Assembly: GCA_039621445.1 (NCBI GenBank)
Contig: CP154954.1
Coordinates: forward strand, 33,271,455-33,335,454
DNA length: 64,000 nucleotides
From: Euglena gracilis
Taxonomy: Eukaryota
Direction of reading: 5' to 3'
In this document: positions 2,146 to 61,535 of the stretch, piece after piece
How positions within the stretch are numbered: position 1 is the first letter of the stretch
Layout: each line of letters opens with the position of its first letter
Position numbers and translations under genes: made by a program
Notes under the pieces: model-generated
Told to the model about the DNA's origin: nothing
The model's input: only the letters and a program-made list of their open reading frames with translations
Databases searched by the model: none

Positions 2146-2211
2146 AGTTCAACTGGAACAAGAAATTCAAAGAACAGAAACACAGATATCAACAAAGGAC
2201 TTCCATGAAGA

Positions 2212-5200: not shown

Positions 5201-5300
5201 AAAATCTGGGAAATGTCAAGAGATATGATTCAGCCTTCAGGACATTGGTGGGCCAATTGTCGCACAAAGGGGTGCCCTGCAGGACTGCACAGTCCACAAG

Positions 5301-34600: not shown

Positions 34601-37600
34601 TGTTCAGTCTTGCCCAGCATTGGCCAGTCCAGGGCGCACTTCAAAGCGCGGCAGCAAGGGCTTGCCGAACGGGTACACTCTCTTCACCCGGCAGTAGAGC
34701 CGCTTCCGCCACCAGAAATACATGTCGCTGAGCTGCTGCAGGCGACAGCCCTTGGCTGGTCTGTGCAATGCAGCACAGAAGACGGCGCAGAAGGGCACAG
34801 AAGACGGCGCAGAAGGGCACTGAAACGAGAAAAAAGCGGAAATGACATCCTTCTTTTTGTTTTGGTTTTGCGCCGTTGATTCACAGCGCCGTCCTTTCCC
34901 CAAGTCAAACCCCACGCACCTGAGGTCAACTCCGCCACACGAAGCCAACCACAACACAATCGCCACAGGGCTTCACAGAAATGCCCCAGTGATATCACTT
35001 TTGTCAGCTGCACAGAGACAAACAAGGCCTGGCGAGGAGGGCTGGGCGGACAAGGCCAGCACGGGTTCACTGCCAGCGGTCGGACAAGGGGGCAACCCGC
35101 CTTGGGAGAGGCCGCGCAGCTTTTCCAGCCGATCAAAGGCAGCCTCCAGCATTTCCCAGCCATGGCGCAGCGCAGCCCCCCTCCCGGACCAGCGCCCAAG
35201 AGTGACAGGGAAACACACACACAACATGGGGGAGGGGTGGAGACCCCATCCCAGACCCTGACCTCATTGCCTTGCAACATTGTGATGGGAATAGGCTGGG
35301 GACAGGCACCTGTGGTCACTTCCCATTTTGGTGCTCTGGTCGGCCCTGGTCGGCAAATAATCGGCCATAGGTGGGGGTATCCGTCACAGAAAAAATGCGA
35401 AGGGATGCAATGATTTTCTGAATTGTCTCGCCAAGGTCAAAAAGAAGTGCCCCATAAGGCCTCCATTGGCTCCCCAAAAGCAACCAAAATGACCTAAAAT
35501 GGCTTGAAATAACCAAAAATGACCCAAAAAACGCCAACAAAATCCACAAAAGATTGTGAAAAATGACCCAAAATTACCAAAAGGGCGCAAAATGGCCAAA
35601 ATGCCATAAAAAATGCTCAGATTGACCCAAATTAGCCCAATATTTGCCAAACCAGTGACAAATGGCCCCCAAATTAGCAAAAACTGATCCATAATGCCCA
35701 AAATGGGTGTAAAACTGGATATTTGTGAGAAAATTATCCAAAAATGGTTTTAATTCTTCAAAATATACAAGAAAAATGCCAGCATCACCCAGCATCGCCC
35801 AGCAACACCCTGCATCGCCCAACATCGCCCAGCATCGGAACCAGGCTTTTGCTTAAGGACCCCGGGGGGGGGGGGGGGGGTACTGGCTAGCCAATCGGCT
35901 AGACACTGGAAAAAGTGGACCAGCTAGACCCCCCCTCCCCCCCCCCCCGGGGGGGGGGGGGGTCCGGGGGTCCCCCGGACTGGAAAAAAAAATTTTCCTC
36001 CGGCGCTGCGCGCCGGAGGAAAGATGAGGTTTTTAATAGGGTTTTGGCTGATTTTGTTCCAAAAATTTCCAAAAATGGCCAAAAACGGGCATTTTTGGCC
36101 ATTTTTGGGGGTCCCAAAAAAAATTTTCGGCGCTTCGCGCCGGTCACTGGAAAAAAATTTTCCACTAGCTAGCCCTGCTAGCAGACCCCCCCCCCGGGGG
36201 GGTCTGCTAGAAAACCCACTAGCCAAATTTGGACTAGCTGCAGTCCAGCCCCCCCCCGGGGGGGTACTGCAATCCCTTAAGCAAATGCCTGATCGGAACC
36301 CTACCTCTGGTCTCCAAAAATCCAGCATCACCCAGCATCGCCCTGCAACGCCCAGCACCATCAGAGGTGCTTGTTCCAGAGGGAAAGCTGCCGAATTCCT
36401 TCATCCATTCCCCTTCGGTCGGCCAACCACATGCAAGTCGGCCCTGGTCGGCCCTGGTCGGAACCCCCACCTACGGGGGTCCTGAAAATCATAGTCGGCC
36501 CTGGTCGGCCCTGGTCAGCCGTAGGTGCCTGGCTGGGGAGAACATGCCACGCTGATATCTCTGATGCTGGGAGAAAAGAATAAACCAACCTTCGGGGGGC
36601 ATATTGATTTTTGATGGGCTCAAATGACATTGCAGTGTTGGAAGCTGTGACAACCCCCCCATACTGCACGTTTGTGTTTGTGGTGATCTAAATCCCAGCT
36701 GGTTCTGTTCTATTGCAAATTTTTTGTTTGTTTAGAATTGGGAGTTGCAATTGAAAGAGTTGCAATTAACCGATCAAAAAACAAAAACCATGATCAACAC
36801 AAACAACACGGCTTTCAAACCCTAAGCAGGCTGCATCATGGATGAGTGTGAGGGCGTTTGCCTTGGGAACGTTCTCATTGTAAATGTTTAGCCAGCGGCG
36901 GTCGAGAACAGACCTCCAATATACAAATCACAATTTCCAAAAATGCAAAAAAGCAAATGTTTTTTTGGTTCTGTCACTGACGGGTTGGCTGATAGAAGGG
37001 ACGCTGACAAATTCCTATCAGGTTTTCTGGGCGGGACCCTGACAATTTCCCAGATGGGGAAAATCAAGGGGGGTACATCCATTTGTGAAAAATCGGGGAA
37101 AATATACACTACAAATATTTCAGAGACAACTACAAAGATTTCATTTCTGGTGCTCTATTACCCCCCCCCTGGTTGGGGTCGGTATAAAAGTCGTTGGGCA
37201 AAGGGGGTGCGGGTAACCCCTGGGGGGGGGGGTGCCCTGCCCCCTGCCTGCCCATGCCCCCACAGGGCGTGAACTTCCTTCAAAAGAAGCCCAAGAGGTC
37301 CTGAACAAAAAACCCCGTCGTGTGGACCGTTCAGGTGAGGTCTGAGTGAGAGCATCCACATCATAATTAACTTCCTCGTTGTTGTCATCTTCCAGGTAAC
37401 GGATATACGTGGAGGGCTGTTGGCAGCAGGCAATCAAATCACAGCGGAATCTTTTTTTCAATTTGGGGGGGGGGGGGGTGCGAGCTGACAGGAAAACAAA
37501 ATTTAGTGCTTTGTGTCGAAAAGCGAAATTTTCATTCAACTTTGGTCCACTGTTCATCAAACCAAATGGCAAAGCTACAACATCTCGCCAAATCACTTTC

Positions 37601-42703: not shown

Positions 42704-43203
42704 CAGGGAATTTCTTAAGGACCCCCCGGGGGGGGGGTCCAGCCTCCGGCTGGCCAAAAGGCTGCTTGCTGGATTTGAGCTGCTGGCTGGACTCCCCCCC
42801 GGGGGGGGGGGGGGGGGGGGGGAGGGGGGTTTCCGGGGTTGGAGCTGGCTGGGCTGGGCTGGGTCGAAGAAAAACAAAAATTTCTAACACATTTTCGACA
42901 TTTTGATGGGTGGAGCTAGATCAAGGCTGGGGGGCTGTGATGGAGGGGCTGTGATGAGGGGGAAAAATGCAGGGATAAGTGAGCTGGACAGCCCAGTTGG
43001 CTGGCCGGCCTGCGGCCGGCTGGGCCGGCCTTCGGCCGGCTGGCCCGGCCTCCGGCCGGGCTGGACCCGACTTTATTTCACTCGACCCCGGGGGGGGGGG
43101 GGGGGCTCCCAGCCCAAATTTGGGCTGCTGGCTGGATTTGAGCTGCTGGCTGGCTGGACCCCCCCCGGGGGGTAGGGTACCCTCCGGCTTAAGAAATTCC
43201 CTG
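42704..43203. mobile_element. hAT-like MITE (500 bp), TSD CCAACATG
   Basis: 16-bp TIR cagggaatttcttaag and a perfect TSD. Near-identical to 45391-45894. Confidence 0.95.
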
Positions 43204-43348: not shown

Positions 43349-46300
43349 CTAAAGGCCCTTCGCGCTGGTGTTTGCCCGAACCACAAGGTGCCGGGTCTCG
43401 TCCAAGGGGTAGTTGTTCATGCTCTGGATGGCCCCTTGGGCCTCCTCCGGGGAGGTGAAGTGAATGAAGGCAATATTGCCCACCGGGTTGGAACCAGGTT
43501 GGGGTCGGCGAGGCCTGACGGGCACCATCGGCGGGCCGAACCGACCAAAAGAGCACAGCAAACGCCCAACCTGACTGGAGCCTCGGGTCAGCTGCACCTT
43601 GGAGATGGTGCCGAACCCCTCAAAGAGAGACTGCAGAGCAGTCGGGGACAGGACGGCAGCCGCCAATTGTGATGGGCGAAATGGGAACCGGGGACCAACT
43701 GGGCACCTTCGCAGGGCTCATCATTTGGACGGAAGACGGCCCCTCACTTGGGCCTATAGAAAACCGTGATTTGGCCCCAAAACAGGAAACCGATTGGGGG
43801 TTCCCATTGGGATCCCCGGGATAACTATTCCGATGTGCCGGCCGGATTAGGGTGTGAAAAAGATGCAGATATCAAAAAACTAGCCAGATAACGACAGTTT
43901 TGAAAATCTCCTGCTGAGCTGGCGGATGGGGGGAAACCGGCAAAACGACAGCGCTGCAGGACACGCGGACTGATTCCTCGGAGTCATCCCCCCCCGGAAT
44001 GGGAATGGGGCGACCGTCCTGCTCTCATCCCAATCATGGGGCACCCCGCCGACGTAGACAGACGTGGGGCTCGCCACTGCACCACCCTTGCCCCGGCCCC
44101 GGCCCTTGCCCAGCCCGCGGCCGCCGGGGAAGCCCGCCGGGGCCCCGTAGGCAAAGCCGCCCCCAAAGCCACCAAAGGCACCGCCACGGGGAATCTTGAA
44201 CGCCGGGCCACCGAATCCATTGTCCGCGGAAGGCTTTTTTCAAGCACGTGGCAATGCAAAACAGAATCACACAGAACGATTTAGGTGAACCACTCTGATT
44301 TTCTTCGAGGACAATGCCACCCGTTCAGGATTCTCACAAGGGATTGGTGGTAAAAAAAAATGGCCAAAAAATGGTGCAAAAAGAAAAAAAATGGAGCAAA
44401 ACAAGGGAAATATCCGGACATTTTCCAAAAATTTTCTGTCGCGGCCAAAATGGAATAAAAATATTTAACCAATTTTTGGTCATTGGAAAAAATTTTACTG
44501 CCGCCAGCGAACTCCCCGCAGGGTCAGTGTTGGGTCCAGGTGCCTGCCAGGGGGAAGAAAGATGAAGCCCCCTTCGGCCCTCCCGGCTGTTGGGGTGACC
44601 CAAAAAGGGCCGGTGTTGGGATTCGGATTCGCCCGACGTCAGGCCGGGTGGAGGGGTGCTGCTGTGGCTGATTTTGGCCCAGCTGCAGCAGCCCCCCCCC
44701 CCCCCCCCGGGTCTGCAAAACCCGACAGACATGAATAATCCTGCCCCGAAAAGACTGAGATGAGAAGAAGAAGATGAGGGGTTTAAAAGAAGCCTGCCCA
44801 AGGGGCCGCTTCATCCCAGTGCCCGGCAGAGCATCCCGCAGCTGCGTGGAGGACATGAAGACCTTCAGCGTTTGGGGGAAATCCTCGTCGAGAGGGTAGC
44901 CGTGAGAGGCAGGGGCATGCTCGCACTGCCGCCCGAAACCTTGGAGGAATTCCGTCCCATCCAAACGATGCAGAAACTCACATTCAAATGATGCGAGGAC
45001 CTGGGGTTCCAAAGCTTCATTTTAGGTCACCGATTCCTTTGGTTTTGCTCACTTCCGCGATATGTTGACATCGGTTCTCCGACCCCAAGAACAGCCCAAA
45101 ATAAAGGGGCCGGATTGGCTGGAAAATGGCCTGAGAAAAATGGGGATGAACTGGAAAACCTGGTGAGACAAAAAAAAGTCATCACTCTTGAGGGGGTTTT
45201 CTTGAATTGAGAGAGAGGACGTCGTGGGCTGAACCAAACATGGTTCTGCCTCTGGCTTTGAACCTGTGTTTGGTCGGTTGGAAGGTGAGGATGACCCTGG
45301 CAGAGCCACTCAATTGCTGCCTGTGCCTCTTGCGGTGTGCCAAACCTTGCATAACCGACCTGGTGCCCTGACTTGGTGGTGCCAGGGGACCAGGGAATTT
45401 CTTAAGGACCCCCGGGGGGGGTCCAGCCTCCGGCTGGCAAAAAGGCTGCTGGCTGGATTTGAGCTGCTGGCTGGACCGCCCCCCCCCCGGGGGGGGGGGG
45501 GGGGGGGGGGGGGGGTCTGGGGCTGGAGGGGGCTGGGCTGGGCTGGGTCGAGGAAAACCAAAATTTTCCAACACATTTTTGCCATTTTCGACATTTTGAT
45601 GGGTGGAGCTAGATCAAGGCTGGGGGGTTGTGATGGAGGGGCTGTGATGAGGGGAAAAAATGCAAGGATAAGTGACCTGGGCAGCCCAGTTGGCTGGCCA
45701 GCCTGCGGCCGGCTGGCCCGGCCTTCGGCCGGCTGGCCCGGCCTCCGGCCGGGCTGGACCAAACGTTATTTCACTCGACCCCGGGGGGGGGGGGGCTCCC
45801 AGCCCGAATTTGGGCTGCTGGCTGGATTTGAGCTGCTGGCTGGCTGGACCCCCCCCCGGGGGGTAGGGTACCCTCCGGCTTAAGAAATTCCCTGCAGGGG
45901 ACTCAGCAAGCGCCCCGTGGACGCTGTGTGCAGGGATGCCGAAGCGCAACCCCCCCACCCCAAATGGGCCATCTGAGGGCATTTCCCCCCAAAATTTTTG
46001 GCAATGGCCAAACCTCCCAGGGTCCACCCCGGAGTTCCAGGGGGGGTCTTCCAAATTAAAAAGCCTGAGCACCCCTGAGAAACCCGCCTAAGAAAAATTG
46101 CTGGGCCCCCCAATCCTGGGATGCGGGAGGGTCCAGCTTGTCCCCCAAAAGCCCAATCCAGCTTGGTCAGCATTCTTGAGCCAAAATCTGGAGGTGCAAA
46201 TCCAAAAGACCCCCCGTCACTTGGTGACCCACCCCCAGGGGGGTCCACCTCAGAGGCTGAAAATTTTGGGCTGGCTGGAAAAAGGCTGACCCCCCAATAG

Positions 46301-49300
46301 GCCAATAGGGGGGGGTCGCTGAGCTCTTATCTCTTTAGAGTAAGAGCGAAGCTTACCACCCCGGCGCCGGGGGGCCCCACCCCCCCCCCGCCCCCCCCGC
46401 CCCCCCCGCCCCCCCCCCCTGGGTAGGTCCGGAAACCCCGGGATTATCGATGTGACTGGATTTTGTGGCCCCCAAAGTGAATGGCCTATAGGTTAGGAAA
46501 GGATCCCTAGTACCTCCAGAGCCTTTCGGTTACCCGCAACTCCCCGCCAGTCCGGAGATATGGCCCGAGCAAAAAAGTTGTCTACCGTTTTTTTTCCAAA
46601 GAAATTTTGTTGGACCGGCAAAAGGGGCCATTTTTGGGGTCAAAAAATCGAAAAATTCAAAATATCTCGAAAACGCTGGGGAGTTGAGAAAAAGTAAAGA
46701 GTACCTCATTCCACAACTTTGGGACGCCCTATCCACCGGTATGCGCGGTTTGGTCCAACTCCCCGCCTGGCCCGAGATATGGCCGTTTTTCGGTCCAAAT
46801 GGCCGTTTTGTACACTTTTCCCACTGTCCGACTTAGCCGTTTTCTGGCCAAAAAGTCGAAAAAATCGAATTTTTTTTTTCGCCCAAAACCATGTTTTTTG
46901 GCCTCCCGGACCCGAAAAAAGTGTTTTTGAGCTGAAGATGAGCGTTTTTCGACCCGCCAGCGCCCCGTTTTGGTTCGCCAACCCATTGACTTTGGGTCAA
47001 AACCAGGTCAAAAAAGTCGAAAAAAATCGAAAAAATTTTTTTCGCCCAAAAACATGTTTTTTGGCCGCCCGGACCCGGAAAAAGTGTTTTTGAGCTGAAA
47101 ATGAGAGTTTTTCGACGCGCCGGGACCCCTTTTTGGTTGGACAACCCATTGACTTTGGGTCAAAACCGGGTCAAAAAAAACCAAAAAAATCGAAAAAATT
47201 TTTCAGCCCAAAACGATGTTTATGGTCTCCCGGACCCAGAAAACATGTTTTTGGGCCAAAAATGAGCGTTTTTCGCAGGCCGGGCCGGAGTGGTCCCCCA
47301 AAGAGCTCAGCTCTACGTCACACCCTGGTCGCTGAGCTCTTATCTCTTTAGAGTAAGAGCGAAGCTTACCACCGGGGCCGGAGACCCCCCCTTACCCCCC
47401 CGCCCCCCCCCCCCCCCCCGCCCCCCCGCCCCCCCCCGCCCCCCCCTGAGTAGGTCCGGGCACCCGAGGATTATCGATGTGATTGGATTTCCGTGCCCCC
47501 AAAGTGAATAGCCTATAGGTTAGGGGACGATCCCTAGTTTCTCCAGAGCCGTTGGGTTCCGCGCAACTCCATGCCAGTCCGGAGATATGGCCCGAGCAAA
47601 AAAGTTGTCTACCGTTTTTTTTTCCGGGGAAATTTCAGGGTCATTTTGGGGTCAAATAATCGAAAAATTCAAAATATCTCAAAAACGCTGCGGAGTTGAG
47701 AAAAATTAAAGAGGACGTCATTCCTCAACTTTGGGACGCCCGATCGATCGGTATGCGCGGTTCGGGCCAACTCCCCGCCTAGCCCGAGATACGGCCGTTT
47801 TGGGGTTTTGGGCCAGTTTGGCCAGTTTCAGCCGTTTCGGGCCCGTTCGGGCCCCGAAACCGTAATTTGCCCGTATCTCGGGCTAGACGGGGAGTTGGAG
47901 CCCAAACCAGGGGGTCAAACATTAGGTTTAGGGGGGGGTTTTGACCGTTTTTTGGGGTTCCCGGGGTCTGGTTGTGCGATTTTGGGCCATTTTTGGGTAT
48001 TCGGGGACCCCTGCGGGGGTTCGAGGGCCGCCATGCTGGGGTCCAAAAATCGAAAATTTCAAAATATCTCGAAAATGCTGCGGAGTTGAGGAAAAGTGAT
48101 GGCGACCTTATTTGACGACCTTGGAACGCCCGATCGATCAGTATGCGCGATTTGGGACAACTCCTTGCCTAGCCCGAGATACGGCCGTTTTGCCAGTTTT
48201 GGCCCGTTCGGGGCCCGAAACCGTAAATTGGCCGTATCTCGGGCTAGACGGGGAGTTGGGACCCAAACTGGGGGTCAAACATTACGTTTAGGGGGGGGTT
48301 TTGACCGTTTTTTGGGGTTCCCGGGGTCTGGTTGTGCGATTTTGGCCAGTTTTGGGTATTCGGGGACCCCATCACGCGCCGTTGGGGCGGCTGGGCGAGG
48401 GGGGGTCGGGTGGCAGGTCGGGACCCAAAATTTTGAAAAAATTTTTTTCGCTCAAAAACACTTTTTTTCACTTCAGAACTCAAAAAAAAGTGTTTTTGAG
48501 CGAAAAAGAATTTTCCGACCCGGACCCCTCCATGCCCCCCCTTGGATGCCCCCCCCCTGGCCGGTGGACTTAGCCATTTTTGGGTCAAAAAGTCAAAAAA
48601 ATTCAAATTTTTTTTTTCGCCCAAAACCATGTTTTTTGACCTCCCGGACCCGAAAAAAGTGTTTTCGAGCCGAAAATGAGCGTTTTTCGACCCGCCAGCG
48701 CCCCGTTTTGGGCCGCCGACCCATTGCCTTTGGGTCAAAACCAGGTGAAAAAAGTCGAAAAAAATCGAAAAAAAATTTTTCGCCCGAAACGATGTTTTTT
48801 GGCCTCGCGGACCAAGAAAAACTGTTTTTGAGCCGAAAATGAGTGTTTTTCGACCCACCAGCCGGGCCGGGCCGCCGGCCGCCGGGCCGCCGGGCCGCCG
48901 GGCTACCGGGCCGCCGGCCGGGCCGGCCGGGCCGCCGGGCCGCCGGCCGGGCCTGGCCGCCGGGCCGCGGGCCGGGCCGCCGAGCCGCCGGGCCGTTCCG
49001 GGCCAGGCCGGGCGCTGCGCCGGACTGGGATCGTCTCCCAAAGAGCTCAGCTCTACCTCACACCCTGGTTATGGGGGGGGTCCCTGGCTGGAACTGGGCC
49101 GACCTGGGGTCGAACCTGGGAAAGGCCAAAAATGCCCAAAAAACTGCCAATTATGCAAAAAAAAATCAACTTTTCGATCCAAAATTTGCCTGGCCAGCCC
49201 AAAGCCGACCCGTTATTTGCCCATTTTGGCCAATTTTGCACCCCCGAAAGCCAAAAATCCGTCACCGTCCAGCCGCCCAAAGGGCGGCTGGAAAACGACA

Positions 49301-49637
49301 ACTCGTCGATGGGGGGAGGCTGCTGGCTGGCTGGATCCCGCCAGGCATGGGGTCCACTTCGGCTCAAGTGATGTGAATGTCTCCAGCCAAGGTGCCAAAG
49401 CCCACATCAGAAGAATTGCTGTGGTCCCCTGCATATGATTGATGATGCATCGTTGCACTCCGGCAGCAAATTTGAACATCAAGCGGAATTCACGCGGTGT
49501 TGCGGGCAATGGTCACCCAACTGTCACATCAGCCTGAAGGAAAGCAAAAGGTTCCCTTTCATAAATGGGGGGCCATTGGATATGTGGTCTGGGAGGTTTC
49601 CGACGCAGATGGTGGTCGATGCTTCAACCAATGCCAT
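43349..49637 (-). CDS. Two-RRM RNA-binding protein with a Gly/Arg-rich linker (paralog A), 7 exons, all six introns nonconventional
   Basis: Exons 49637-49582, 49501-49435, 45377-45303, 44904-44800, 44224-44025, 43643-43577, 43489-43349 join in frame: MALVEASTTICVGNLPDHITPREFRLMF...GHQVGYARF...HGYPLDEDFPQTLKVFMS...SVYVGGVPHDWDETALQSLFEGFG...GNIAFIHF...MNNYPLDETRHLVVRANTSAKGL*. Aligns with paralog B. Confidence 0.9.
45391..45894. mobile_element. hAT-like MITE, TSD CAGGGGAC, inside intron 2 of paralog A
   Basis: caggggac-CAGGGaatttcttaag ... cttaagaaattCCCTG-caggggac. Confidence 0.95.
46317..49069. mobile_element. Head-to-tail pair of a non-autonomous element with asymmetric subterminal inverted repeats (Helentron/HINE-like)
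   Basis: Units ~46317-47329 and ~47330-49069 both start cgctgagctcttatctctttagagtaagagc (hairpin) and end aagagctcagc-tctac.tcacaccctggt. Confidence 0.6.
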
Positions 49638-51786
49638 AATATTGTTGCGTACCTGTGAGAGCAAATGAGGGTGGAAATGCAACTGAAACCGTGTTGAATA
49701 AAAGCTTTCGAAGTGTGCTAATCAGGGCGTTTTTTTTACGACCCACTGGAAAGGATGAACAGGGGAGTTATCCAGTCAAACGAGGAGAGCGGGACAGGGC
49801 TGTGGGGGGAAGGCTGGGGAGGAGGGGATGGACCATGGAGGGGGGGGATATGCAACAAGGCTCACCAAATATGCAAGGCAAAAAAAAAATGCAAAAAAAA
49901 ATACGCAAGCTTTGCATAAATCCCCTGAGGAGCTCCCCGGGGCTGTGCACTTTTTCACTGGAGATGACTTCGTTGGTTCCTAAAATCTGTTTTGAAAATT
50001 TTCCAAGACAAATTTTTGAAAGCTTTTTAAAGTGCCTGGGCCAGACCCCCCCAGGGGGGGGTTCTCGGACAGAAAATTGGTTTTGGTGCGAGGCAGCCAA
50101 TTTTTTTTGGGAAATGCCCTATTTGCTATTTTTGGAACCTGCCGAGGAGGGGGTGGGGGGAGGTCCACACCATACCATTGGTTGCCGACCCCCAAGGGGG
50201 GGGGGTAACTTTCCACTTTCAAAAAGCCAGTTATTCACTTTTCAAAAAAGGATTTGGTCAAACCCCACCTCCGGGGGGGGGGTCTAGGGCCAAAAACCAG
50301 TCAGTCACTCCGAAAAAACCAGTCAGCCACTCCCGGGGCAGAACGGGAAGGCCTGGGGGGGGGGGGGTCGACCCCCCCCCACCCACCACAGCATCTTCAT
50401 CGATTTCGGGAAAATAGGGATTTTGGCCGAAATTTTTTGAACTTTTTTGAAAAATGAATTCAAAACACATGATTTTTTGATGGAAAACCACATTTTTTTC
50501 CACAAAAAAATCTCAAAATTTTCAGGGTTAAAAATTGGTATTCTTAGGAGGGGGGGGGTGAAAAAAACCAACGTCAAAAAAAAGTGGACCAAATTTTGGC
50601 ACAGTCAAATTTTACTGACATTTTTTCTCTGTGAAATTTTTTTGGATTTTCAATGGCATTTTTTTTTGGCTTCCAAACCAGCCCCCACCCACACGGGGGG
50701 GTCGACCCCCCCCACCCACCACCCTGGCTGTTTGGCCGATTCCCGTTCCGCCCTGGCCACTCCCCTGGGGTGGTGTGGTCCTGAAACAATGGGATAATCC
50801 AGACCCCCCTTCCGCTCACCTAATACCCCGGGGGGGGGGGTTCAGACCCCTCCGGTCAAAGGGGTTGGACTACCCCCCGAAAGCCCGGATGCCTGGTGAA
50901 AGCCCGGATGCCTGGTGAAAGCCCGCCTACCTGCCAACCATGGGAAACCTGTTCATCCCTGGACCTCACGCGAAGCAATGCGAACTGCACAAAACAAAGG
51001 GGTGAGAGGATCGACGGTGGTGCCTGTGAGCCGTCGCCTTCATCAGTGATGGTGCGTCCGAACAGTGAGGCCTTCTTCAGGCATCAGGCGATAATTGTGG
51101 CCTAAAACGCACAGCAAACGAACGGAGGAAAGAGGGAGTTCAGAAAGGTTCGGGATGGCGTGCAGCACCAGTTGCGGCAAGTGGTGACCGCAGCCATTGA
51201 AAAGATACATCTCAAAAAAATGAATGGATGGAGAACTTGACAACAGCGTTTTAAACCAAAAAACCACTGTCCCCCAACGAAAGCTTCTCTTTCTTTTGGC
51301 TGGAGATAATGTTTTCACTTCCTACTCCCATTGACGAAATTTGAACGATGCTTTCCGCAAGAAAAAGACATCATGCAGAGGAAATCAAATGGGTTTGAGA
51401 GTGACCCCTTTGCCATCAACATGCGTCAAATCCCACATGGTTTTTAAGTTCTTTGGGCCTCCCAGACGAGGAAGGAAACTGAAAACAAAAAGTAACATCA
51501 CGGTCTCGATTGTGTTTCAGAGGTATCTTTGGCAGAATACAACCTCCGTCGCTTGCATATGTGAAATACCTTGATCATAATTCTTGGCTTTGTGCTATGG
51601 CGTCTCAATTTGAGTGCTTTACAATGCAGAGGAGGGAGCAGGCTTCTTATTAAAATACGAGGGGGAACAGAGGAAGGGAACTGTCCATCCATTTTCCAAA
51701 TTAACTTGGGAAATGCCCTGCTTTCCCGCCAGGGGTTTTATTTTTAAGACCGGGGGGAGGGGTCCCCTCCACCCACCCCCTTGAGT

Positions 51787-52012
51787 GTATGTATATGTGT
51801 ATGTATGTATGTATGTATGTATGTATGTATGTATGTATGTATGTATGTATGTATGTATGTATGTATGTATGTATGTATGTATGTATGTATGTATGTATGT
51901 ATGTATGTACGTACGATGTATGTACGTACGATGTATGTATGTATGTAGTATGTATGTATGCTTGTATGTACGTATGTATGTATGTATGTACGTATGTATG
52001 TATGTATGTATG
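51787..52012. repeat. (TATG)n microsatellite
   Basis: About 225 bp of tatg repeats with interruptions. Confidence 0.98.
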
Positions 52013-52014
52013 TA

Positions 52015-52680
52015 CCTCCCCCCCCTGTCCAACGACCACTAATGTTCGTCTCCGACCGGGGGGGGGGGGGGGGTCGTTAGACAAGGGGGGTGGGCCCCAG
52101 GCCGGCAATAAATTGGCCACATATGGGGGTCATTTTGGACAACTTTGGGCGATTTTCGGCATTTTTGACGACTTCTGCCATTTTTTGGCCATTTTTTGCC
52201 ACGTTTGGTTTCATTTAGCCATCCTTGGCCACTGTTGGCCATTTTGGGTTTCTTTAGCCATTTTTTGGCCACTTCTGGCCATTTTGGGCAATTTTGGGCC
52301 ACTTTTTGCCCAATTTCAGGCCATTTTTGCCCACTTTTGGCCATTTTTGGCCAACTGGAATCAAATTTCAGCCGTTTGGAACAATCTCACACTTCCATAA
52401 ATTTCAGTCATTTTGGGATGATTTGTAACTATTTTGGGGAGCTTTTGGCCTTTTTTTGTGCCGTTTTGGCATTTTCAGCCATTTTAGGGAGCCATTTTAG
52501 GGTGGTAATCCCAAACAAATTGCAAAAAAAGCATCACTGCAACATGCAAATGCAACTAAACCGAAAATAAAATCACACAATTTCTTTTGCAGTACTGAAC
52601 CAACATCGTATACAAAAAGTCGTCTCTGACCGGGGGGGGGGGTCGTTAGACAAGCTCGGTCGTTGGACAAGGGGGGGAGG
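52015..52680. mobile_element. TA-flanked MITE abutting the microsatellite
   Basis: ta-cctcccccccctgtccaacgacc ... ggtcgttggacaagggggggagg-ta. Confidence 0.75.
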
Positions 52681-53132
52681 TATGTACATCCATCCATCTA
52701 CCCATCTACTCAGGGGGGGTGAAAAAGTGAGCTCCTTTTCACTCGGGGAAAAGTGAGGGGGACCACTCACTTTTCCCCGAGGTTGGTCCAACCTGCCAAA
52801 AAGGCAGGTTGGTCCAACCTGCCAAAAAGGCCAAAACGTCGTATATTTCCTTTGATTTGGTGTCTCCTCAAAGTTCAAGTATCCATGCCTTTTTCTGGGT
52901 TTGCCTCCCAAGCAGTGACCTGTGCCGGCTTGCAGATAAAGCTTTCAAAATGGACCAAAAAGACTTTTTCAGGGTGCCTGGGGGGGGCACATATCTGAAA
53001 TTGTGCGCCTGGAGCAAAGTGCCGGAAGCAGGGGTTTTTTTAGTCTTGGACCCCCCCCCTGGGGGGCAGGCAGGGCAGGCGGGTCTGGCTGAGCCCCCCC
53101 CCCCCCCAGGTCCTTCAAGGGAGGTGGGATAT

Positions 53133-53308
53133 ACCACCCCCCCCCCTTATTGTCCCACCGACCTCCCCCCGGGAGGCCCGACCGGACGATAAGGGGGGGG
53201 GGGACAATAAGGGGGTACCAAAGGAATTTCATTGGCCGAGCCAAAAAACCCCCCGTCGGCCGGGGCCGAGGGACAATAAGGGGGGGGGGACAATAAGGGG
53301 GGGGGTGG
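53133..53308. mobile_element. Short TA-flanked MITE; second copy at 63150-63327
   Basis: TIR ccaccccccccccttattgtccc / gggacaataagggggggggtgg with TA on both sides. The two copies are nearly identical. Confidence 0.88.
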
Positions 53309-53822
53309 TAAAACCCCCTCCCAGTGATAAACCCCCGAAAGTTTAATGGATCCGGTTTGGTTGGTCGGCCGAAGGGGGGGGGGTTATAAGTGGGGGGGGT
53401 TTAAGTCCCGGAATTGTTGATGAAAATCCGACCCCCAAAAATGACCCCGAAACCCCCCCAAATTGGCAATTTTTGCCAAATTTGGTCAAAAATGGCATTT
53501 TTGACGATGGTTGGTCTCAAAAAAAAAACTGCCAAAAAATCAACTTTTGGTGGTTTGCGGCCGAAAAAAAATTGTCCCCGGTGGCTTTCGTTTTTCTTCC
53601 CCGGGGGGGGGGGGTTATAAGTCCCGGTTTGGTTGGTCGGCCCGAGGGGGGTTTATAAGTAGGGGGGGGGGGGTTATAAGGGGGGGGGGTTATAAGTGGG
53701 AGGGGGGGTTTACTTTTCGGTGCTGAAGGCGCCGAAAATTTTTCAAAAGGGTGCTACTTTTGGCATTTTCGCAATTTTTTTGGCACATATCCCCCATGAC
53801 CCCTGACCCTCAAAGTGCCAAA

Positions 53823-55317
53823 CGGTAGACTGGGGGGGGGGGGTAGTGGGTAGTCGGCCGACTAGTCGGCCGACTACCCAATTGGTCCACCGACTAGTCG
53901 GCCGACTAATTGGTCGGTAGCTAGTCGGCGGGGGGGTAGTGGGTAGTCGGCCGACTAGTCGGCCGACTACCCACTCTAATGTACTAACGGGTCAAAACCG
54001 CCGACTTTTAAGCCCCCCCCCTGGGAAAAAAAATTTGTCTAATTCACCTCAACGCCGGTCAAAACCCACCCAAATGGCTCCAGAACCCCCCAATCGGGGG
54101 TGAATATGCAAAAAAATTGGGGGAAAATGTCCATTTTGGGCCACTTTTGACAAAAATACACCTCTCCCCATGAATTTTCAATATAAGTCAAAATTTGCAC
54201 AAAAAAAGGGTCTTATCCCTCCAAGTCTATTGCCAACATAGAAGGGATTTTGTTATTTGAGGGGGGGGGGTGCGGGGGGGGGGGGCGGAGCCCCCCCCGC
54301 CTATGCCAAAGTGAGCCACAAAAACGACTTAGCCCCCGAGTATGTTGCAAACACAGAAGGGATTTTGTTATTTGGGGGGGGGGTGCGGGGGGGGCGGAGC
54401 CCCCCCCGCCTATGCCAAAGTGAGCCACAAAAACGACTTAGCCCCTGAGTATGTTGCCAACAGAGAAGGGATTTTGTTATTTGAGGGGGGGGGGTGCGGG
54501 GGGGGCGGAGCCCCCCCCGCCTATGCCAAAGTGAGCCACAAAAACGACTTAGCCCCCGAGTATGTTGCCAACAGAGAAGGGATTTTGTTATTTGAGGGGG
54601 GGGGTGCGGGGGGGGCGGAGCCCCCCCCGCCTATGCCAAAGTGAGCCACAAAACGACTTAGCCCCCGAGTATGTTGCAAACACAGAAGGGATTTTGTTAT
54701 TTGAGGGGGGGGTGCGGGGGGCGGAGCCCCCCCCGCCTATGCCAAAGTGAGCCACAAAAACGACTTAGCCCCCGAGTATGTTGCCAACACAGAAGGGATT
54801 TTGTTATTTGAGTCTCGGATTGGGGTGGAGGGGGGAGTTTTCTGCCTCTCGTGATGCAAAACGCAGATTGCAGATTGCATTTCTAAAGGATTTTAATGTA
54901 ATCCCTATTTCATCATTGGTTTTTTACCCCTCCGGACCCCCATCAAGGGCACACCCACCCCCCACTGACCAAAGATTTCCATCTGGGGGTGTTTATTTAG
55001 GCGTAAGACACTTATTTGGACCCACCCGGACCATTTCCGGGTGATTTGGGCCCGCCACAGGCCATTTTTATGACCGCCGACTAGCCACCGACTAGTTTCC
55101 ATTGGATTTTGTTCATGGGGGGGGGGCTTAAAAGTCGGCGGTTTTGACCCGTTAGTACATTAGAGTGGGTAGTCGGCCGACTAGTTGGCCGACTACCCAC
55201 TACCCCCCCCCCCCTGTCTCGCCGACTAGCTACCGACTAGGACTAGTCGGTGGACCAATTGGGTAGTCGGCCGACTAGTCGGCCGACTACCCACTACCCC
55301 CCCCCCCCAGTCTACCG
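53823..55317. mobile_element. Long-TIR (~195 bp) foldback element carrying an internal minisatellite; right end tandemly duplicated to ~55720
   Basis: cggtagactggggg...cttttaagccccc at 53823-54020 is inverted at ~55116-55317. 55088-55403 is repeated at 55404-55720. No TSD recognised. Confidence 0.8.
54228..54812. repeat. ~110-bp minisatellite, about 5 copies
   Basis: Unit atgttgc.aaca.agaagggattttgttattt...cctatgccaaagtgagccacaaaaacgacttagcccccgagt. Confidence 0.95.
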
Positions 55318-55918
55318 CCTTGCGCCGACCCTCAAGGAAGGTTTCGGTTTAAAAAATGGTGTTTTTTTTTCACTGGCTGTCCAGGGGTTCACAAGAAAGT
55401 CCACCGACTAGTTTCCATTGGATTTTGTTCATGGGGGGGGGGGCTTAAAAGTCGGCGGTTTTGACCCGTTAGTACATTAGAGTGGGTAGTCGGCCGACTA
55501 GTTGGCCGACTACCCACTACCCCCCCCCCCTGTCTCGCCGACTAGCTACCGACTAGGACTAGTCGGTGGACCAATTGGGTAGTCGGCCGACTAGTCGGCC
55601 GACTACCCACTACCCCCCCCCCCCAGTCTACCGCCTTGCGCCGACCCTCAAGGAAGGTTTCGGTTTAAAAAATGGTGTTTTTTTTTCACTGGCTGTCCAG
55701 GGGTTCACAAGAAAGTCCACTGGCCAATTTTTGCCGGTTGCAGTCCAGCCCCCTCCCTCAAAGGGGGGGTCTGCTAGGATGCAGTGAAATCTTTTATATG
55801 GGCGGACATGTTTCTGGGCTGAAAAAAATTGTCTTTTGGGCAAACAGATATCCACAAGTTGAGTTTCTTTATGATCCCTCCACCATTCAAGAGAAGCAAG
55901 CCAAAAACAAGCTGGTGC

Positions 55919-58900
55919 CTAGATTCGTGGGCTGCTGGTGTTGCCCCGCACCACGAGGTGACGGGTCTCGTCCAGCGGGTAGTTGTTCATGCTCTGGATG
56001 GCGCCTTGGGCCTCCTCTGGGGTTGTGAAGTGGATGAATGCAATGGCATCAGAGATGCAGGCTTCAGTGTCCAGGTGACAAATTCGGCAGGTAAAGCAAG
56101 CAGCAGGTTTTGTGGTTTTTGGCCAGTAAACCATCATAGAAACCTGTTGTGAACAGGCCATTGCTTGAGGAACTCAGCGGATCCACTGGCTAGCCATTTT
56201 GCTGGACACTGGAAAAAATGGACTAGTTAGACCCCGGGGGGCCCCCAGACTGGGAAAAAATTTCCTCCGGCGCTGTGAGCCGAGGTGGAAAGGAGGTTTC
56301 TTTTGCATTTCTCTTCGGCACTTCGCACTGAAACCGAAACCCAGGCCTCCTCCAGCCCATCTGTGTCAGAGGGTTTTTTAGGACCCAGGGGGGGTCTGGA
56401 CCAAAACACTCGGCTTCCGGGAGGGGGGGCACCTTTGGGGGTCAATTTTGGGGTCCAAAAAAAACTTCGGCGCGAATAGAAGAAAACCCTGCCTCCAGCG
56501 GGGCACCATACTCCCCCGAGCTATTCCAAATGGTCAATATTGAGCACTTTTGACAAAAAGTGCTTTTTGAAAACGTCCAAAAAAACGTCAATTTTGGACT
56601 GTACTTTTTTGAACTGCACTTTTTAAAAAGTGCTATGACAGTGACCTAATCCCGCCCCCCCCCCATGGGAATAGCTCGGGGGGGCATGGTTCCCACTCGC
56701 CCTACCCCACCCCCCCAGGGGGTTCGGCCGGGACCCATCCACCGGGTCATGAAACTTAAAAAATTTCTGGTCTGTGACCCCGCCGGGGGGGGGGGGGTCT
56801 TCTGAGTTTAGAAAAGCCTTCACTGGATAGCACACTCTTGCATTGCTGCGGCAGGTTCCTCCTTGGAATGTCACAACGACATTTTCAGTCAACCACATCT
56901 TTCATTTGTGATGATTGTGAACCAACAACTTGAAAAACCTCAATCGTCATCGAGGTCTCTTGAGCAGTGCAAGCGTATAACGCTCAGTTGTTACAGAATG
57001 GGTCATTACCTTTTCCCTATCAATGGATTCGATGAGAAACAGCCTCCACTGCAAACATCCCTGGGTGTTCCCAACTGGGTTGCTTCCACGAGTGAGCTGC
57101 ACTTTGGTGATTGTTCCAAATCCTTCAAACAGGGACTGGAGGGCAGTCAATTGAAGAGAAGAGCCACTTTGAATCTCGCTTGGTTGTTGGAAATGTACAG
57201 AGGGGCTATTTTACCTACCAGACACCTTCATTAAGTTCATCTGGGTGCACACACAAAGGGATTTTGTTAGGGTGCGTGTTTTGGCCATCCTTGCCTTGCA
57301 CACCCAAGGGGGTTTTGTTATTTTGGGGGGGGGTCCCGGGGGCCGACTAAGTTCGCGTTTTGGCAATCATTTTCCTTTTTGGAGGGATATGGGACGCTTT
57401 TTGACAGTTTCAAGGCCATTCCAATGTGTTTCCGTGCATTTTGAGTCAAATTTACTGACTCAAATTTCGGGGGGGGGGGCTTAAATTCAAAAAAATCGGG
57501 AGGTAATGCGGTTGATTGGAGGTCGGGCCGACCTGGTCGGCCTGACCTCCAATGGTCGATAAGCCATAGCCAATGGTCGGCCCGACTTCGTCATAGCCAA
57601 TCATCCGCACGGAGCCCTGTTTTGGAAATAGAGCACCGTGCAGCGTGGAAAAATCTGATGACACCGCTGGTCATCTGGTGATAAGAGCTCGAGGGGCAAC
57701 TTGGCACCCTAACGTTGTACGCAGACCGAGATACGCTCGCGATCGTCGGATCAGCCAGAATCTCAATCGAAATTTGTCGTGATTTTTGGTGTTCCTTACT
57801 TTAAGATGCTTAATGAACCACACAGAAGCGATTTTTCTCTTCGAATCGACGGCCTGAGGGGTCCAGGGGGGCACAAGGATTGTGAAATTAGGATTTCCCA
57901 GTCAGGATACTGGGATACTGGGATACTGGGAAGAGTACTGTGCAGCGTGGCTGAATTTGGTGGTGATTACTGGTTGTCTGATGAAAAGAGCTTTCGATTG
58001 AGGGGTGAGTTTGTACCTGAGCGATCGACACAGCCAGAGATACGCTCACGACCGTCGGAATTTGGCTATCAGATCAGTGGTGAATGATTGGTCCTGGGAG
58101 TGTCCTTACACCGAAGGTTGGGAACGCCGGTTTCCCCAAAAACGCCGCTTTAAAGAGGGGGGTGGGTTGGTTTCTCCGGGCAATTGGGCTTGGCTCGAAA
58201 GGCAGGTTGGGACGAAGATTTTTGCTTTGCATGAGAAGATCTTGATCGGCCTGACCCCCCAAGTAACGGATGGTGGGGTGTGTTGGAAGCATGCTGCGTC
58301 TGTGCTCTGGAAACACTTGGCACTTCCCTGGGCTCATCCCAGTCATGGGGTACACCTCCAACATAAACGGATGAGGGGCTGGAGGCTACACCACCAGGCT
58401 GAAATTGAAATTGGGGGAGGGGGGTCTGGGAGTGCCTCAGGCAGGTGCTGCACCCCACCCCAGGGGGGTGCAGCACCTGCCCCACCCCCCCCCCTCCTGG
58501 CCCGCAGGGGGGTCCGGGGACCCCCTCTCCCCCCCAGGGTTGGTAAAAAACCCAGCATTTTGGGCACTTTTTGGCCCACGACCTGGCCCAAAATTTTTGA
58601 CCCCCCAAAACGACCAAAAGTGCCATTTTGGGCACTCTTTGGGCAAAAATTTGCCAAAAATGCAAAAATTTTCGACGGGTGCCCCCCCAGGGTCGGTCCG
58701 GACCCCCCTGGCAGGTGGGGTGGTCCGGCCCCCCCTGCGGGCCAGGAGGGGGGGGGTGGGGGACACCCCCCCACCTAAACCATGTACGCCCTCCTTATAT
58801 CAAACCTTGGGCACTACCCCCCCGGGGGGGGTCGGATTTCGGTCTGTGCCCAGGCACATTCCTTTGAGGATAGGCCATTTTTGGCTCCCCGGCGCCGGGG

Positions 58901-60425
58901 TTGTGCCAGGGCACTTTTGGCCATGTGCCCTACCCTACCCCCGGGGGGGGGGGGGTCGGATCAGGAGTGCCTTGGAGTGCCTGCCCCCCCCCCCGGTGGG
59001 GTCGGCACCCAACTAAAATACAGCCTGGCAGGAACCCCCGGTCAGCATTGCCTTGAAATTCAGCCTGTGCACCACCTTTCCCACGGCCTTTTCCAGCACC
59101 TTTGCCAAAACCACGGCCACCAATGAACCCAGGAGCTGCAGCAAAAGGCATTTCAGAATTTGACATGAGGTGAAACGAGGTGGCTTGGTTGAAGAGGTGG
59201 CCCAAGCACCTCAGGGCACCGAAGTCCGTTTTTTTTGACGATGACGGTTTACCTTGCTTGTTGCTGTGTCCGCTTCCAAAAATTCCTCCAAGGAAAAAAA
59301 CGCCAAAAAGGTCCTGGTATCCAAGAACCAACGACCTTGAATCCTTTGAGTCAGTACTTGTTCGCTACTCGACCGCCACCGAAATTTTTCAAAGTCTTAT
59401 TGGAATATTTAAGGTTATTGAAGGAGTAGGGTTTGGTGCGCACATGGACATGTTGTGCAACATGGCCATGTGCGCACCTAACCCTACCCTTCAAATAACC
59501 CCACAATAAACTGGCGGTCGAGTAGCAAACAAGTACCTTTGAGTCAACCAAGGACTTGAATCACCAAAAGTGCTCTAAAAAGTGGTCTTCTGAGGCGAGG
59601 CAGACAGTATCCAGCAACCCCCAACGTGCAGGTTTTGGCGATTCGCATTCTCTCCATAAGTTCTGGTTGGTGTGGGCTTCTCCATTTGGTGAGTTTTTGA
59701 AAAGACAAGTTGTCCAAAGAATAGAGTCCCTGCCAAAAACAAAATTTTCTTTGTTTCTTCCGATTTTTTGAACAAGCAAAAACCAAAATCAAACAACATC
59801 ACAACTGGTTCATTGCCGTTAGTGAGGTTCCAGGTTGATTTGACTTCCTCATGGTTCTCACACTTTGCAGTTCAGAAAAAGTGCTCAGAGAAACCTGAGC
59901 CTCTCACAAGCACATTTGAACAGTTGTCAAATTCTGTGCACTCCCCCCAACCGTGGGAATTTCGCTGCAGGTGCGCCAAAACCATTGTCCAGCGGGCGCT
60001 TTGGTCGGGTGCCAGGAAGGGCATCGCGCAATTGAGTTGAAGACATGAAAACTTTCAAAGTGTTTGGGAAGTCCTCGTCAATCGGGTATCCGTGAGCATC
60101 AGGGAAGCTGTCAGGTTGAAAATTTCATATAAAACTTCATATCATTTTCAGCAGCCCTGCGCAAGCCATTCAATGGCGGCTTGAGCTTCTTGTGCCGTTC
60201 CAAACCTTGCATAACCAACCTGGTGTCCAGCCTTGGTGTGATTGATGATGCACCGTTGGACACCGTTTGCGAATTTGAACATAAGGCGAAATTCACGAGC
60301 CGTTTACAACAGGAACCAATCAAAAAAAGAGCAAGAAATCTCACTGGAGAGTGATTCCTGCTCATATAGTCGGGAAGGTTTCCGACACAAATAGTTGTAG
60401 ATGCTTCAGGGATTGCGAGTTCCAT
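55919..60425 (-). CDS. Two-RRM RNA-binding protein (paralog B), 7 exons, all six introns nonconventional
   Basis: Exons 60425-60364, 60304-60163, 60094-59940, 59149-59071, 58389-58334, 57148-57067, 56044-55919 join in frame: MELAIPEASTTICVGNLPDYITAREFRLMF...HGYPIDEDFPNTLKVFMS...SVYVGGVPHDWDETALQSLF...GNIAFIHF...RGNTSSPRI*. The stop codon aligns with paralog A. Confidence 0.9.
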
Positions 60426-60623
60426 ATTTGAATATCCCTGAAAGTGACAGAAACCACAGCGTCCATTCAAAACGCCATTTAAAGCAGTAAGCAAGTTTAA
60501 ATTCAAAAAATATTTATTTCTGAAAAGGTTTGTCTCTCGGGTTTTTCCTTTTTTGTCCCTCCTCTCTCTCGCTGGAAACCATAGGATCAATTCCTAATTT
60601 GAAGTTCTTTCTTAGCGTCTTTC

Positions 60624-60649
60624 ACTTTCTGAGTGTCTATTTTTTTTCG
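60624..60649 (+). other. Genomic copy of the Euglena spliced-leader exon ACTTTCTGAGTGTCTATTTTTTTTCG
   Basis: Exact match to the 26-nt E. gracilis SL as I recall it. It is followed by CCCTGG rather than a GT donor. Confidence 0.92.
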
Positions 60650-61535
60650 CCCCTGGTGGGGTCTGAAGATATCACTACTGAGATTACTGTGGATGATGTC
60701 GAAGACCCAATGGACATTACCCTCAGTCCGGCTTCGGTACAGAGTGTCAATGAGGTACCGGCACCCCCTCCAAGACAGCCAGAGGAGCAGTCCAGAGCAG
60801 TGCTGAAGGGCAAAAGCAAACGGCCTGACAAGCGACATCGAACAATCTTCAATTTGCACATGGAGCTGAAACAATTACAAGCCAAAATGAAGGTAAAAGA
60901 AAAGAAATAGAAGGCAGAAGAAGAGGAGCTAAGAGAACAGCTGAAACGTTTAACAGCGACTGCCCCTCCCCCTTTGCCGCAGCCCTCTACTGACCAGATC
61001 CCAGCTTCGGCTGGTTGGCACGTTGTCCTTCTGCCCCCTCTTCCCCCAATTTGCCCCCATCTTTGGTTCAATGTGTTCTTCCCCACTCCCTCTTCCACCC
61101 AAAATGTGCCCCATGTACCTGATTTGCTGGGATCTGGCCCCCCCCCACTGTGGCACACAGCACCCCCCAGCAAACTGGTCACAATGTCCCTGTGGCTTCT
61201 CCTGCCCCTGTTGTGCCTTTGTCTGGGGTGGGGTTCATTAGAAAAAACTTCAAATCCAGGAATGAAGTGAGGTGAAATTTTGCGAGAAAAACAGAATTCT
61301 TCAGGAATTTCGCCTCGCAGATTTCTATTCAGACGGGGCACGGCGGGTGGGAGTGCCCGACTACGCAGTCAGCCCGCAGCTTACCTTGGTCACACCCGTT
61401 TTGGACGACCTCAGGGGCAGGCTGGGTGCCAACCATGCCACCGTGACCACCTTCCTTAACAACCCACAGCGAATCGCGTCCGCGGACCAGGAGCTGCGGA
61501 AGCAGAAGTGGTGGAATCACGAGCTATTTCGCTAA
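60650..61535 (+). pseudogene. Probable retrocopy of a trans-spliced mRNA, product unknown
   Basis: A coding-like frame follows the SL directly (MDITLSPASVQ...ELKQLQAKMKVKEKK*KAEEEELREQLKRL) with an internal TAG at 60908-60910. A further GC-rich coding-like block lies at ~61330-61535, and its linkage is uncertain. Confidence 0.55.

Follow-up and report, generated by a model that had tools for sequence, protein, structure and literature searches.

The stretch of DNA analysed here (64,000 nucleotides of contig CP154954.1, positions 33,271,455 to 33,335,454; hereafter the window) is nuclear DNA of Euglena gracilis, rich in poly-G/C tracts and inverted-repeat elements, and carries on its minus strand two paralogous RRM genes, A and B, with twelve introns in their coding regions. 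All twelve are nonconventional (non-spliceosomal) introns, whose ends are paired via an inverted repeat headed by CAG/CTG. Intron B4 is an insertion of a MITE family (MITE, miniature inverted-repeat transposable element), a gain that postdates the gene duplication and that splicing removes precisely. Considered together with the free MITEs of the window, it leads us to propose, with a probability of roughly 0.62, that MITEs with CAGG ends and 8-bp duplications are removed from the RNA as element plus 8 nt and become scarless nonconventional introns; the generality of this route, the decay of the duplications in older introns and the hAT enzyme behind the insertions are the parts that we infer.

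The element in B4 (58395-59067) has an inverted repeat in which 11 of 12 positions match, and its 8-nt flanks are identical at seven positions, so that the joint seen in RNA slides over 7 nt. According to this joint the intron is removed precisely, and the exon of paralog A is uninterrupted at the corresponding site. At either end, B4 is similar to the corresponding end of a free copy, that at 32270-33274 (z of 8.8 and 6.4 against shuffled sequences), and the portion at 58413-59027 aligns to three free copies (32270-33274, 12891-13164 and 18256-18522), with 81-93% identity between parts of the interior and free copies where blastn aligns them locally. Over this portion the summed depth of a DNA-like sequencing run is thousands of times the exon depth, a figure that should not be read as a copy number. 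The two paralogs are saturated at synonymous sites (pS 0.768, with 25 of 103 four-fold sites identical), and the near-intact duplication of B4 is thus much younger than the gene duplication.

Free MITEs were sought as CAG...CTG pairs 40-5000 bp apart whose first 12 bases form inverted repeats, and the likeness of the flanks was scored for each flank length L. Among the 59 pairs with at least 11 of 12 positions matching, L=8 gives 4 perfect flank pairs and 11 within one mismatch, compared with no perfect pair and no more than 1 with a single mismatch or none at L=5-7, and 0 and 0 at L=9-12. When at least 10 of 12 matches were accepted and low-complexity ends removed (250 pairs), the counts were 7 and 14 at L=8, and 0 and 0 both at L=7 and at L=9-13. 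An inverted-repeat scan allowing any terminus was swamped by poly-G/C and a palindromic tandem repeat and was replaced by a complexity-filtered scan, in which the high counts of GGC and CTA termini are due to the palindromic repeat at 53860-55600. The pairs collapse to 10-11 insertion events, among them B4 itself and the MITE nested in A2, which agrees with the approximately ten free MITEs with CAGG...CCTG ends and 8-bp target-site duplications (TSDs) described in the first-pass annotation, made from the letters of the window; the peak is at L=8 alone. The 11 listed events comprise five perfect duplications, five with 7/8 and one with 6/8 identical bases, and CAGG begins all 22 of their ends. 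In the free copies the duplications lie directly against CAG and CTG, with no remnant of a 3+5 spacer. Two pairs of related copies, 42704-43203 with 45391-45894 (468/491 identical) and 12449-12882 with 35842-36291 (363/394 identical), occupy different sites with different duplications, which shows transposition. Only pairs with at least 92% identity were used for this comparison, global values of 70-85% being inflated by cheap gaps.

The same first-pass annotation had called these elements hAT-like, a label that appears reasonable on the basis of duplication length, CAGG ends and target-site bias. When the flank copies are folded, T is found at position 2 in 13/22 and A at position 7 in 14/22 (base frequencies about 0.23-0.25; only 11 events, two of them at one site). 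We know of no Ac-like transposase for these Euglena elements, and a Pfam search of nine of the 192 window open reading frames (ORFs) of at least 110 aa returned no transposase match. The published target preference of the Hermes transposon is nTnnnnAn (PMC10368747; papers given by PMC number are cited here for the parts of their text available to us).

According to Nomura et al. (2025; PMC12501133), nonconventional splicing in euglenids follows the code 5'-N3CDG-/-CH'GN5-6|R, and in knock-in tests from the same work the CAG/CTG pair was essential for splicing, with a donor spacer of 3 nt and an acceptor spacer of 5 nt required and 6 tolerated. A purine is conserved at the intron start and at the start of the next exon (PMC4770533). 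Reads were mapped on 55730-64000, a part of the window with no long tandem repeats that holds paralog B, from two likely-RNA contig runs, one raw RNA sequencing (RNA-seq) run and one DNA-like run. All six coding junctions of B were recovered as RNA-seq joints in runs X1, X2 and X21, with 227 to 816 X21 reads per joint (403 for B4), and none in the DNA-like run X20. For each of the six joints, one register within the slide range places CAG at +4 to +6, and the B1 joint, which cannot slide, fixes the N3/N5 register; five joints display the 3+5 spacers and B3 displays 3+4. The introns of paralog A, which lies outside the stretch covered by mapped reads, were placed by homology with B and by the splicing code. 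Boundary pairs within 9 nt on either side that reproduce the protein P0001 (eukprot EG_transcript_12387) always remove the same length, element plus 8 nt, with 2, 3, 2, 3, 3 and 9 compatible alternatives for the six introns; the A junctions rest on this protein match, and the register of A2 may be shifted by 1 nt.

Strict N3-CAG...CTG-N5 borders are present in eight of the twelve introns (A2, A3, A5, A6, B1, B2, B4 and B6), A1 has CAA...TTG, both sides being changed with the pairing kept, and A4 and B5 end in CAG...CTT. Hence the 3+5 geometry and base-paired ends read from the letters in the first-pass annotation hold for 11 of the 12 introns, as does the exception it named, the 4-nt tail of B3. 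Counted inward from CAG and CTG, 11-16 of the first 20 positions are pairable when G-U is allowed, and GT-AG borders occur in no register of any of the twelve. The downstream exon starts with a purine in 10/12 cases, and with C after A3 and B2. Three positions are common to both paralogs and in the same phase (A1/B1, A3/B2 and A5/B5), three are specific to A (A2, A4 and A6) and three to B (B3, B4 and B6), B3 being located in a gapped linker; the earlier count of shared and specific positions was the same.

That inventory was right for the twelve coding introns and omitted a seventh intron of B, located at about 51572-55912 (~4.3 kb, minus strand) in the 3' untranslated region (3'UTR), 6-7 nt after the stop codon. 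It is supported by 633 loose-end reads from 55913 into letters matching window 51541-51571 and has a 10-bp stem about 6 and 8 nt from its ends; several tandem repeats lie within it, as does a (TGTA)58 array.

The proposed route links the spacers to the duplication. An exonic insertion would read duplication-CAG...CTG-duplication, and cuts 3 nt before CAG and 5 nt after CTG would leave exactly one duplication and restore the reading frame. Since 3+5 equals the length of the duplication, a MITE in an exon would be removed together with one duplication's worth of bases, and since its ends are inverted repeats, either orientation would work. In older introns the duplications would have been lost by mutation and the paired ends kept by selection; MITE insertion would be the usual origin of nonconventional introns, and a hAT transposase the mobilising enzyme. 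The conserved purines at intron start and next exon start would both represent position 6 of the same duplicated target. This 3+5=8 relation had been suggested from the sequence beforehand; the removed lengths in 11 of the 12 introns, the duplications of the free copies and B4 bear it out, and its extension to a general origin is a step that the data make plausible.

With flanks defined as the bases directly against CAG and CTG, the six paralog-specific introns show 1 (A2), 3 (A4), 5 (A6), 2 (B3), 7 (B4) and 2 (B6) identical positions at 8 nt. The total of 20/48 is the highest among L=4-12. In the six introns at shared positions flank identity is at chance level (13/48) and the introns themselves are unalignable, which fits the age of the gene duplication. 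Cross-paired intron flanks, used as the null, have a mean of 1.88 identical positions and none of 132 pairs reaches 7/8. A permutation value of 0.082 for any pair with at least 7/8 was discarded as an artefact of permutations that paired B4 with itself, the cross-pair table being the valid null. B3 reaches 5/8 only in an alternative register. An 8-nt flank identity, as judged from sequence, thus appears clear in B4 and is only suggestive in A6. Of the terminal identity expected in the specific introns, B4 and the peak at L=8 remain, with four of the six at chance. Correspondingly, A6 can be considered, weakly, as a gain after the duplication, and for A2, A4, B3 and B6 gain and loss are both compatible with the data.

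Several observations weigh against a general MITE origin. All evidence comes from one 64-kb window. Of the twelve introns, B4 alone can be linked to a family of free MITEs. Leaving aside B4 and A2, the other ten introns have ends that score z of at most 3.1 against nine free MITEs; in A2 the 3' end matches a free MITE solely through the element nested there, and the 5' end has no match. Among the eleven introns other than A2, blastn found no outside copies in the window for eight, and only nested pieces for B5 and B6. The claim that MITE families act as intron generators accordingly stands for B4, with its duplication and its matching ends and interior, and is unsupported by the ends of ten introns. 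A4 had looked by eye, at its ends, like a member of the CAGGCTTTTG family, but its score is not above shuffles (z 1.2) and the likeness was discarded as evidence. B4 itself is composite: the right end proper to the family is at 59027, the outer end, after which the duplication comes, is carried by 40 additional nt, and the first 18 nt of its left end differ from the family. Flanks are at chance level in A2, A4, B3 and B6 (uninformative if these introns are old), B3 is removed as element plus 7 nt, the seventh intron of B has neither GT-AG nor N3-CAG/CTG-N5 ends, and the Pfam search mentioned above yielded no transposase. The paired CAG/CTG ends of the introns are not independent evidence of transposon descent, because splicing needs paired ends. 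Finally, the RNA and DNA runs represent different samples, and the RNA strains would have to carry an empty B4 allele for the joint to mislead, which is unlikely.

These points can be read as signs of occasional exaptation only, in which any CAG/CTG hairpin with 3+5 spacers is removed, most introns arise otherwise, CAGG MITEs are spliced where they chance to insert in a gene, and the agreement between 3+5 and 8 bp is a coincidence or a survival filter. The unmatched ends of ten introns, the match of A2 through a nested MITE only, the chance flanks in four of six specific introns and the other geometry of the 3'UTR intron all fit this explanation, as does the presence of the published signature in just 61.2% of E. 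agilis nonconventional introns (PMC12501133). Nevertheless, we consider it rather doubtful: the register of the free copies, duplication, CAG...CTG, duplication, presents the motif that is essential for splicing, flank identity in the specific introns peaks at L=8, and a recent gain in gapC also has 8-nt repeats, whereas old introns are expected to lose duplication and family likeness, given the saturated neutral sites. Differential loss, by which all nine positions predate the duplication and each paralog lost three introns precisely without any gain, draws on the fact that reverse-transcriptase-mediated loss also leaves precise empty sites, on the absence of any trace of a duplication in A2, A4 and B6, and on a comparison that has two paralogs and no outgroup. 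Precise empty sites in the other paralog had been noted at five of the six specific positions; the position of B3 in the linker and the uninterrupted exon opposite B4 were found as described, and such sites cannot alone separate gain from precise loss. Loss is nonetheless improbable as a full account, since four-fold identity is only 25/103 and yet the B4 flanks agree at 7/8 and parts of its interior at 81-93% with free copies; A6 points weakly in the same direction as B4, and many lineage-specific gains have been published (PMC3935182).

Double-strand-break repair with filler DNA (Milanowski and colleagues 2016) would produce new introns together with short direct repeats. It was proposed for the 8-nt repeat of gapC intron 4 (PMC4770533), and the extra 40 nt in B4 also count for it, but repair would not be expected to place a fixed 8-bp repeat against CAGG ends at ten or more independent sites, nor would it give families of 92-95% identity with different flanks, so that we judge it very improbable here. 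Still less probable is the reverse direction, with the free MITEs being excised nonconventional introns that reinserted into the genome. Excised introns do occur as full-length RNA circles (PMC11282704); the duplications of the free copies, however, adjoin CAG and CTG with no 3+5 spacer remnant, and cut-and-paste DNA transposition is recognised by just this combination of an 8-bp duplication and inverted repeats. Insertion of MITEs into exons, followed by removal of element plus 8 nt, is hence the reading that we retain.

Coordinates of genes, exons, introns and MITEs are given in Table 1. Judging from their sequences, A and B are anciently duplicated two-RRM genes: P0001 matches Pfam RRM_1 in two stretches (E 4e-22), blastn between the A and B regions gives six exon matches, and a single-exon query from paralog A retrieves two proteins, eukprot EG_transcript_12387 and EG_transcript_13479, whose source name points to Euglena gracilis. 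A euglenid nuclear genome is also what the base composition, the poly-G/C tracts and the density of inverted-repeat elements suggest. Both models run from ATG (49637 in A, 60425 in B) to stop (43351-43349 and 55921-55919, minus strand), and these ends are the same as the gene span ends given earlier. RNA variants at 60426 and 60429 are consistent with an allele.

Table 1. Genes, exons, introns and MITEs of the window. Positions are window positions. Joints are written as last exon base > first exon base on the plus strand, with the slide and the read counts from run X21.
Feature	Position	Strand	Description
RRM paralog A coding region	43349..49637	-	7 coding exons, 236 aa; spliced translation identical to P0001 (eukprot EG_transcript_12387)
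Paralog A exons	49582-49637, 49435-49501, 45303-45377, 44800-44904, 44025-44224, 43577-43643, 43349-43489	-	
A1	49502..49581	-	80 nt, N3-CAA...TTG-N5; position common to B1
A2	45378..49434	-	4057 nt, N3-CAG...CTG-N5; 10-bp perfect terminal pairing; A-only; flanks 1/8
A3	44905..45302	-	398 nt, N3-CAG...CTG-N5; position common to B2
A4	44225..44799	-	575 nt, N3-CAG...CTT-N5; A-only; flanks 3/8
A5	43644..44024	-	381 nt, N3-CAG...CTG-N5; position common to B5
A6	43490..43576	-	87 nt, N3-CAG...CTG-N5; 9-bp perfect pairing; A-only; flanks 5/8
RRM paralog B coding region	55919..60425	-	7 coding exons, 233 aa; six RNA-seq joints; translation identical to P0002 except A4T
Paralog B exons	60364-60425, 60163-60304, 59940-60094, 59071-59149, 58334-58389, 57067-57148, 55919-56044	-	
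B1	60305..60363	-	59 nt; position common to A1; joint 60304>60364, slide 0, 425+391 reads
B2	60095..60162	-	68 nt, N3-CAG...CTG-N5; position common to A3; joint 60094>60163, slide 1, 298+293 reads
B3	59150..59939	-	790 nt; CAG...CTG, 13-bp perfect inverted repeat; spacers 3+4 (7 nt); B-only, linker; joint 59147>59938, slide 3, 142+85 reads
B4	58390..59070	-	681 nt; element 58395-59067 (CAGGCTG...CAGCCTG) + 8 nt; B-only; flanks TACACCAC/TGCACCAC 7/8; joint 58388>59070, slide 7, 228+175 reads
B5	57149..58333	-	1185 nt, N3-CAG...CTT-N5; position common to A5; joint 57147>58333, slide 1, 287+279 reads
B6	56045..57066	-	1022 nt, N3-CAG...CTG-N5; B-only; flanks 2/8; joint 56043>57066, slide 2, 216+183 reads
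Free MITE	42704..43203		500 bp, 12/12 inverted repeat, perfect duplication CCAACATG; just past paralog A stop
Nested MITE in A2	45391..45894		duplication CAGGGGAC = host element's terminal 8 bp; 95% identical to 42704-43203
Free MITE	35303..36531		duplication GCTGGGGA; contains nested MITE 35842-36291, duplication ATCGGAAC
Free MITE	32270..33274		1005 bp, duplication TTCCGAAC/TTCTGAAC; same family as B4 interior and ends
Free MITE	26703..27084		382 bp, duplication 7/8; related piece inside B4
Two adjoining MITEs	12449..13164		12449-12882 and 12891-13164, middle 8-bp duplication common to both; block duplicated at 17811-18522
Free MITE	10161..10416		256 bp, perfect duplication ATCCAGAT

Some of these features display further particularities. 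The nested MITE of A2 (45383-45902 with its duplication) is inserted in the last 8 bases of its host element, so that CAGGGGAC recreates the splicing-critical end, and a stretch of 520 nt in the A2 pre-mRNA now holds three CTG motifs that are candidate acceptors. Only five codons separate the positions of A6 and B6 (A6 follows codon 191 of A, B6 the codon corresponding to 196); an intron may have been relocated, or a hot spot may have gained introns twice independently. A second B6 joint at 56044-57068 (121+109 reads) has one letter A between its two sides, which reflects a synonymous G>A difference in the final base of the exon preceding B6 (57067); as the difference is seen in about one third of the reads, like other variants in the gene, its probable source is an allele rather than alternative splicing. 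Inside B3, at 59362-59530, a palindromic element of ~170 bp with non-CAGG ends (TACTCGACCGCC...) belongs to another repeat family; the summed depth of the DNA-like run is ~3700 there and ~40 in its flanks. The layout at 12449-13164 (CTACGGAT - element - CTACAGAT - element - CTACGGAT) comprises two different CAGG MITEs, as if the second had landed in the duplication of the first, and the block is repeated ~5.4 kb further on with 99% identity, within a segmental triplication in which the ORFs at 8993, 14624 and 19981 are near-identical.

At the 5' end of paralog B there are 293 loose-end reads at 60438, and their 10 loose letters are the reverse complement of window 60639-60648. This match falls within a 26-nt stretch (60624-60649, plus strand) that looks like the Euglena spliced-leader exon and is bordered by a repeated, RNA-silent element (60650-61500). 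The match of RNA contigs extends to 60652-60655, beyond which they diverge in at least five ways, like leader-bearing mRNAs. It looks as if a spliced leader is added at 60438 on the B mRNA. Elsewhere in the window, 2209-6413 (plus strand) may be a DIRS-like tyrosine-recombinase retroelement; of its two long ORFs, the one of 1062 aa comes first and contains a YLDD motif, and the one of 394 aa gives a weak Phage_integrase match of 23.9 bits (cut-off 27.1).

The twelve introns are similar to the euglenid introns described by Nomura and Milanowski in their non-GT-AG borders, CAG at +4 to +6, CTG at -8 to -6, paired ends, 3/5 spacers and purine (10/12). A MITE origin of nonconventional introns has been a hypothesis since 2014 (PMC3935182), 'TSD-like' repeats have been described (PMC11282704), and the sole strain-level recent gain on record, gapC intron 4, is flanked by eight-nucleotide direct repeats (PMC4770533). 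Where these papers on euglenid introns offer the MITE origin as a hypothesis, name no MITE family and read the 8-nt repeat as break repair, free CAGG MITEs with 8-bp duplications are found here beside one MITE-family intron, and 3+5 is read as the duplication length. The literature searched (including PMC12621601), in its available parts, contains no named Euglena MITE family, no 8-bp duplication for such elements and no link between 3+5 and 8; supplementary tables, such as Table S3 in PMC4770533 and the data on sliding distances in PMC12501133, lie outside this search and may bear on the point.

Similarities also exist with the introners of Micromonas and Aureococcus, short DNA transposons with inverted repeats and a target duplication that are removed from RNA, the duplication supplying a part (PMC11282704). 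Like them, B4 is a recent insertion with a target duplication (7/8) whose mRNA is restored, as the 7-nt slide and 403 X21 reads indicate. Introners, in contrast, need the spliceosome, with one splice site in the element and one in the duplication (PMC11282704), whereas here removal is non-spliceosomal, guided by paired ends, and the whole duplication length is taken out. Introners furthermore form many near-identical intron copies; no two of the twelve introns share sequence, although 64 kb do not suffice for a judgement on the genome. In Fritillaria borealis there are comparable non-canonical introns derived from MITEs, insertions being tolerated since their odd ends get spliced (PMC11282704), but there a modified spliceosome acts, and the Euglena machinery appears to be spliceosome-independent. 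Maize Ac/Ds elements of the hAT superfamily have ends C/TAGGGATGAAA and 8-bp duplications, and share with the Euglena elements the duplication length, an inverted repeat beginning C/TAGGG and many short non-autonomous copies (PMC3260210). They differ from the Euglena elements in that the spliceosome removes Ds, imperfectly and by way of cryptic sites. In work of Giroux from 1994, cited in PMC3935182, Ds is said to have acted as a new intron.

The origin and dominance of the second, non-spliceosomal intron class of euglenids has been a question since the 1990s. The MITE hypothesis, the TSD-like repeats and the splicing code are already in print; what appears to be new is the tie between 3+5 and an 8-bp duplication, which is well supported for one intron and, as a general rule, plausible but unproven. 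An 8-bp duplication beside CAGG ends would account for the 3/5 spacer rule (2025), the 8-nt repeat (2016) and the purine at both junctions, and this reading is testable with the existing E. agilis and E. gracilis assemblies, RNA-seq and the knock-in assay. The machinery may have been shaped by these elements, or only elements with 8-bp duplications may be tolerated in exons; both fit the data of the window. More tentatively, and with distinctly lower confidence, the splicing system might be an RNA-level excision tuned to one transposon superfamily, its distances of 3 and 5 nt from the paired ends being set by the 8 bp that these elements duplicate, in which case most of the roughly 70% of introns that are nonconventional would be MITE relics and only transposons with 8-bp duplications would colonise exons; a bolder form of this idea would have the splicing machinery share ancestry with the transposition apparatus itself. 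If such a tuned excision system existed, it would account for the excess of introns as well as for the form that the splicing code takes. If MITE insertion proves general, host RNA processing would neutralise a whole transposon class scarlessly, and insertions would become introns on a genomic scale.

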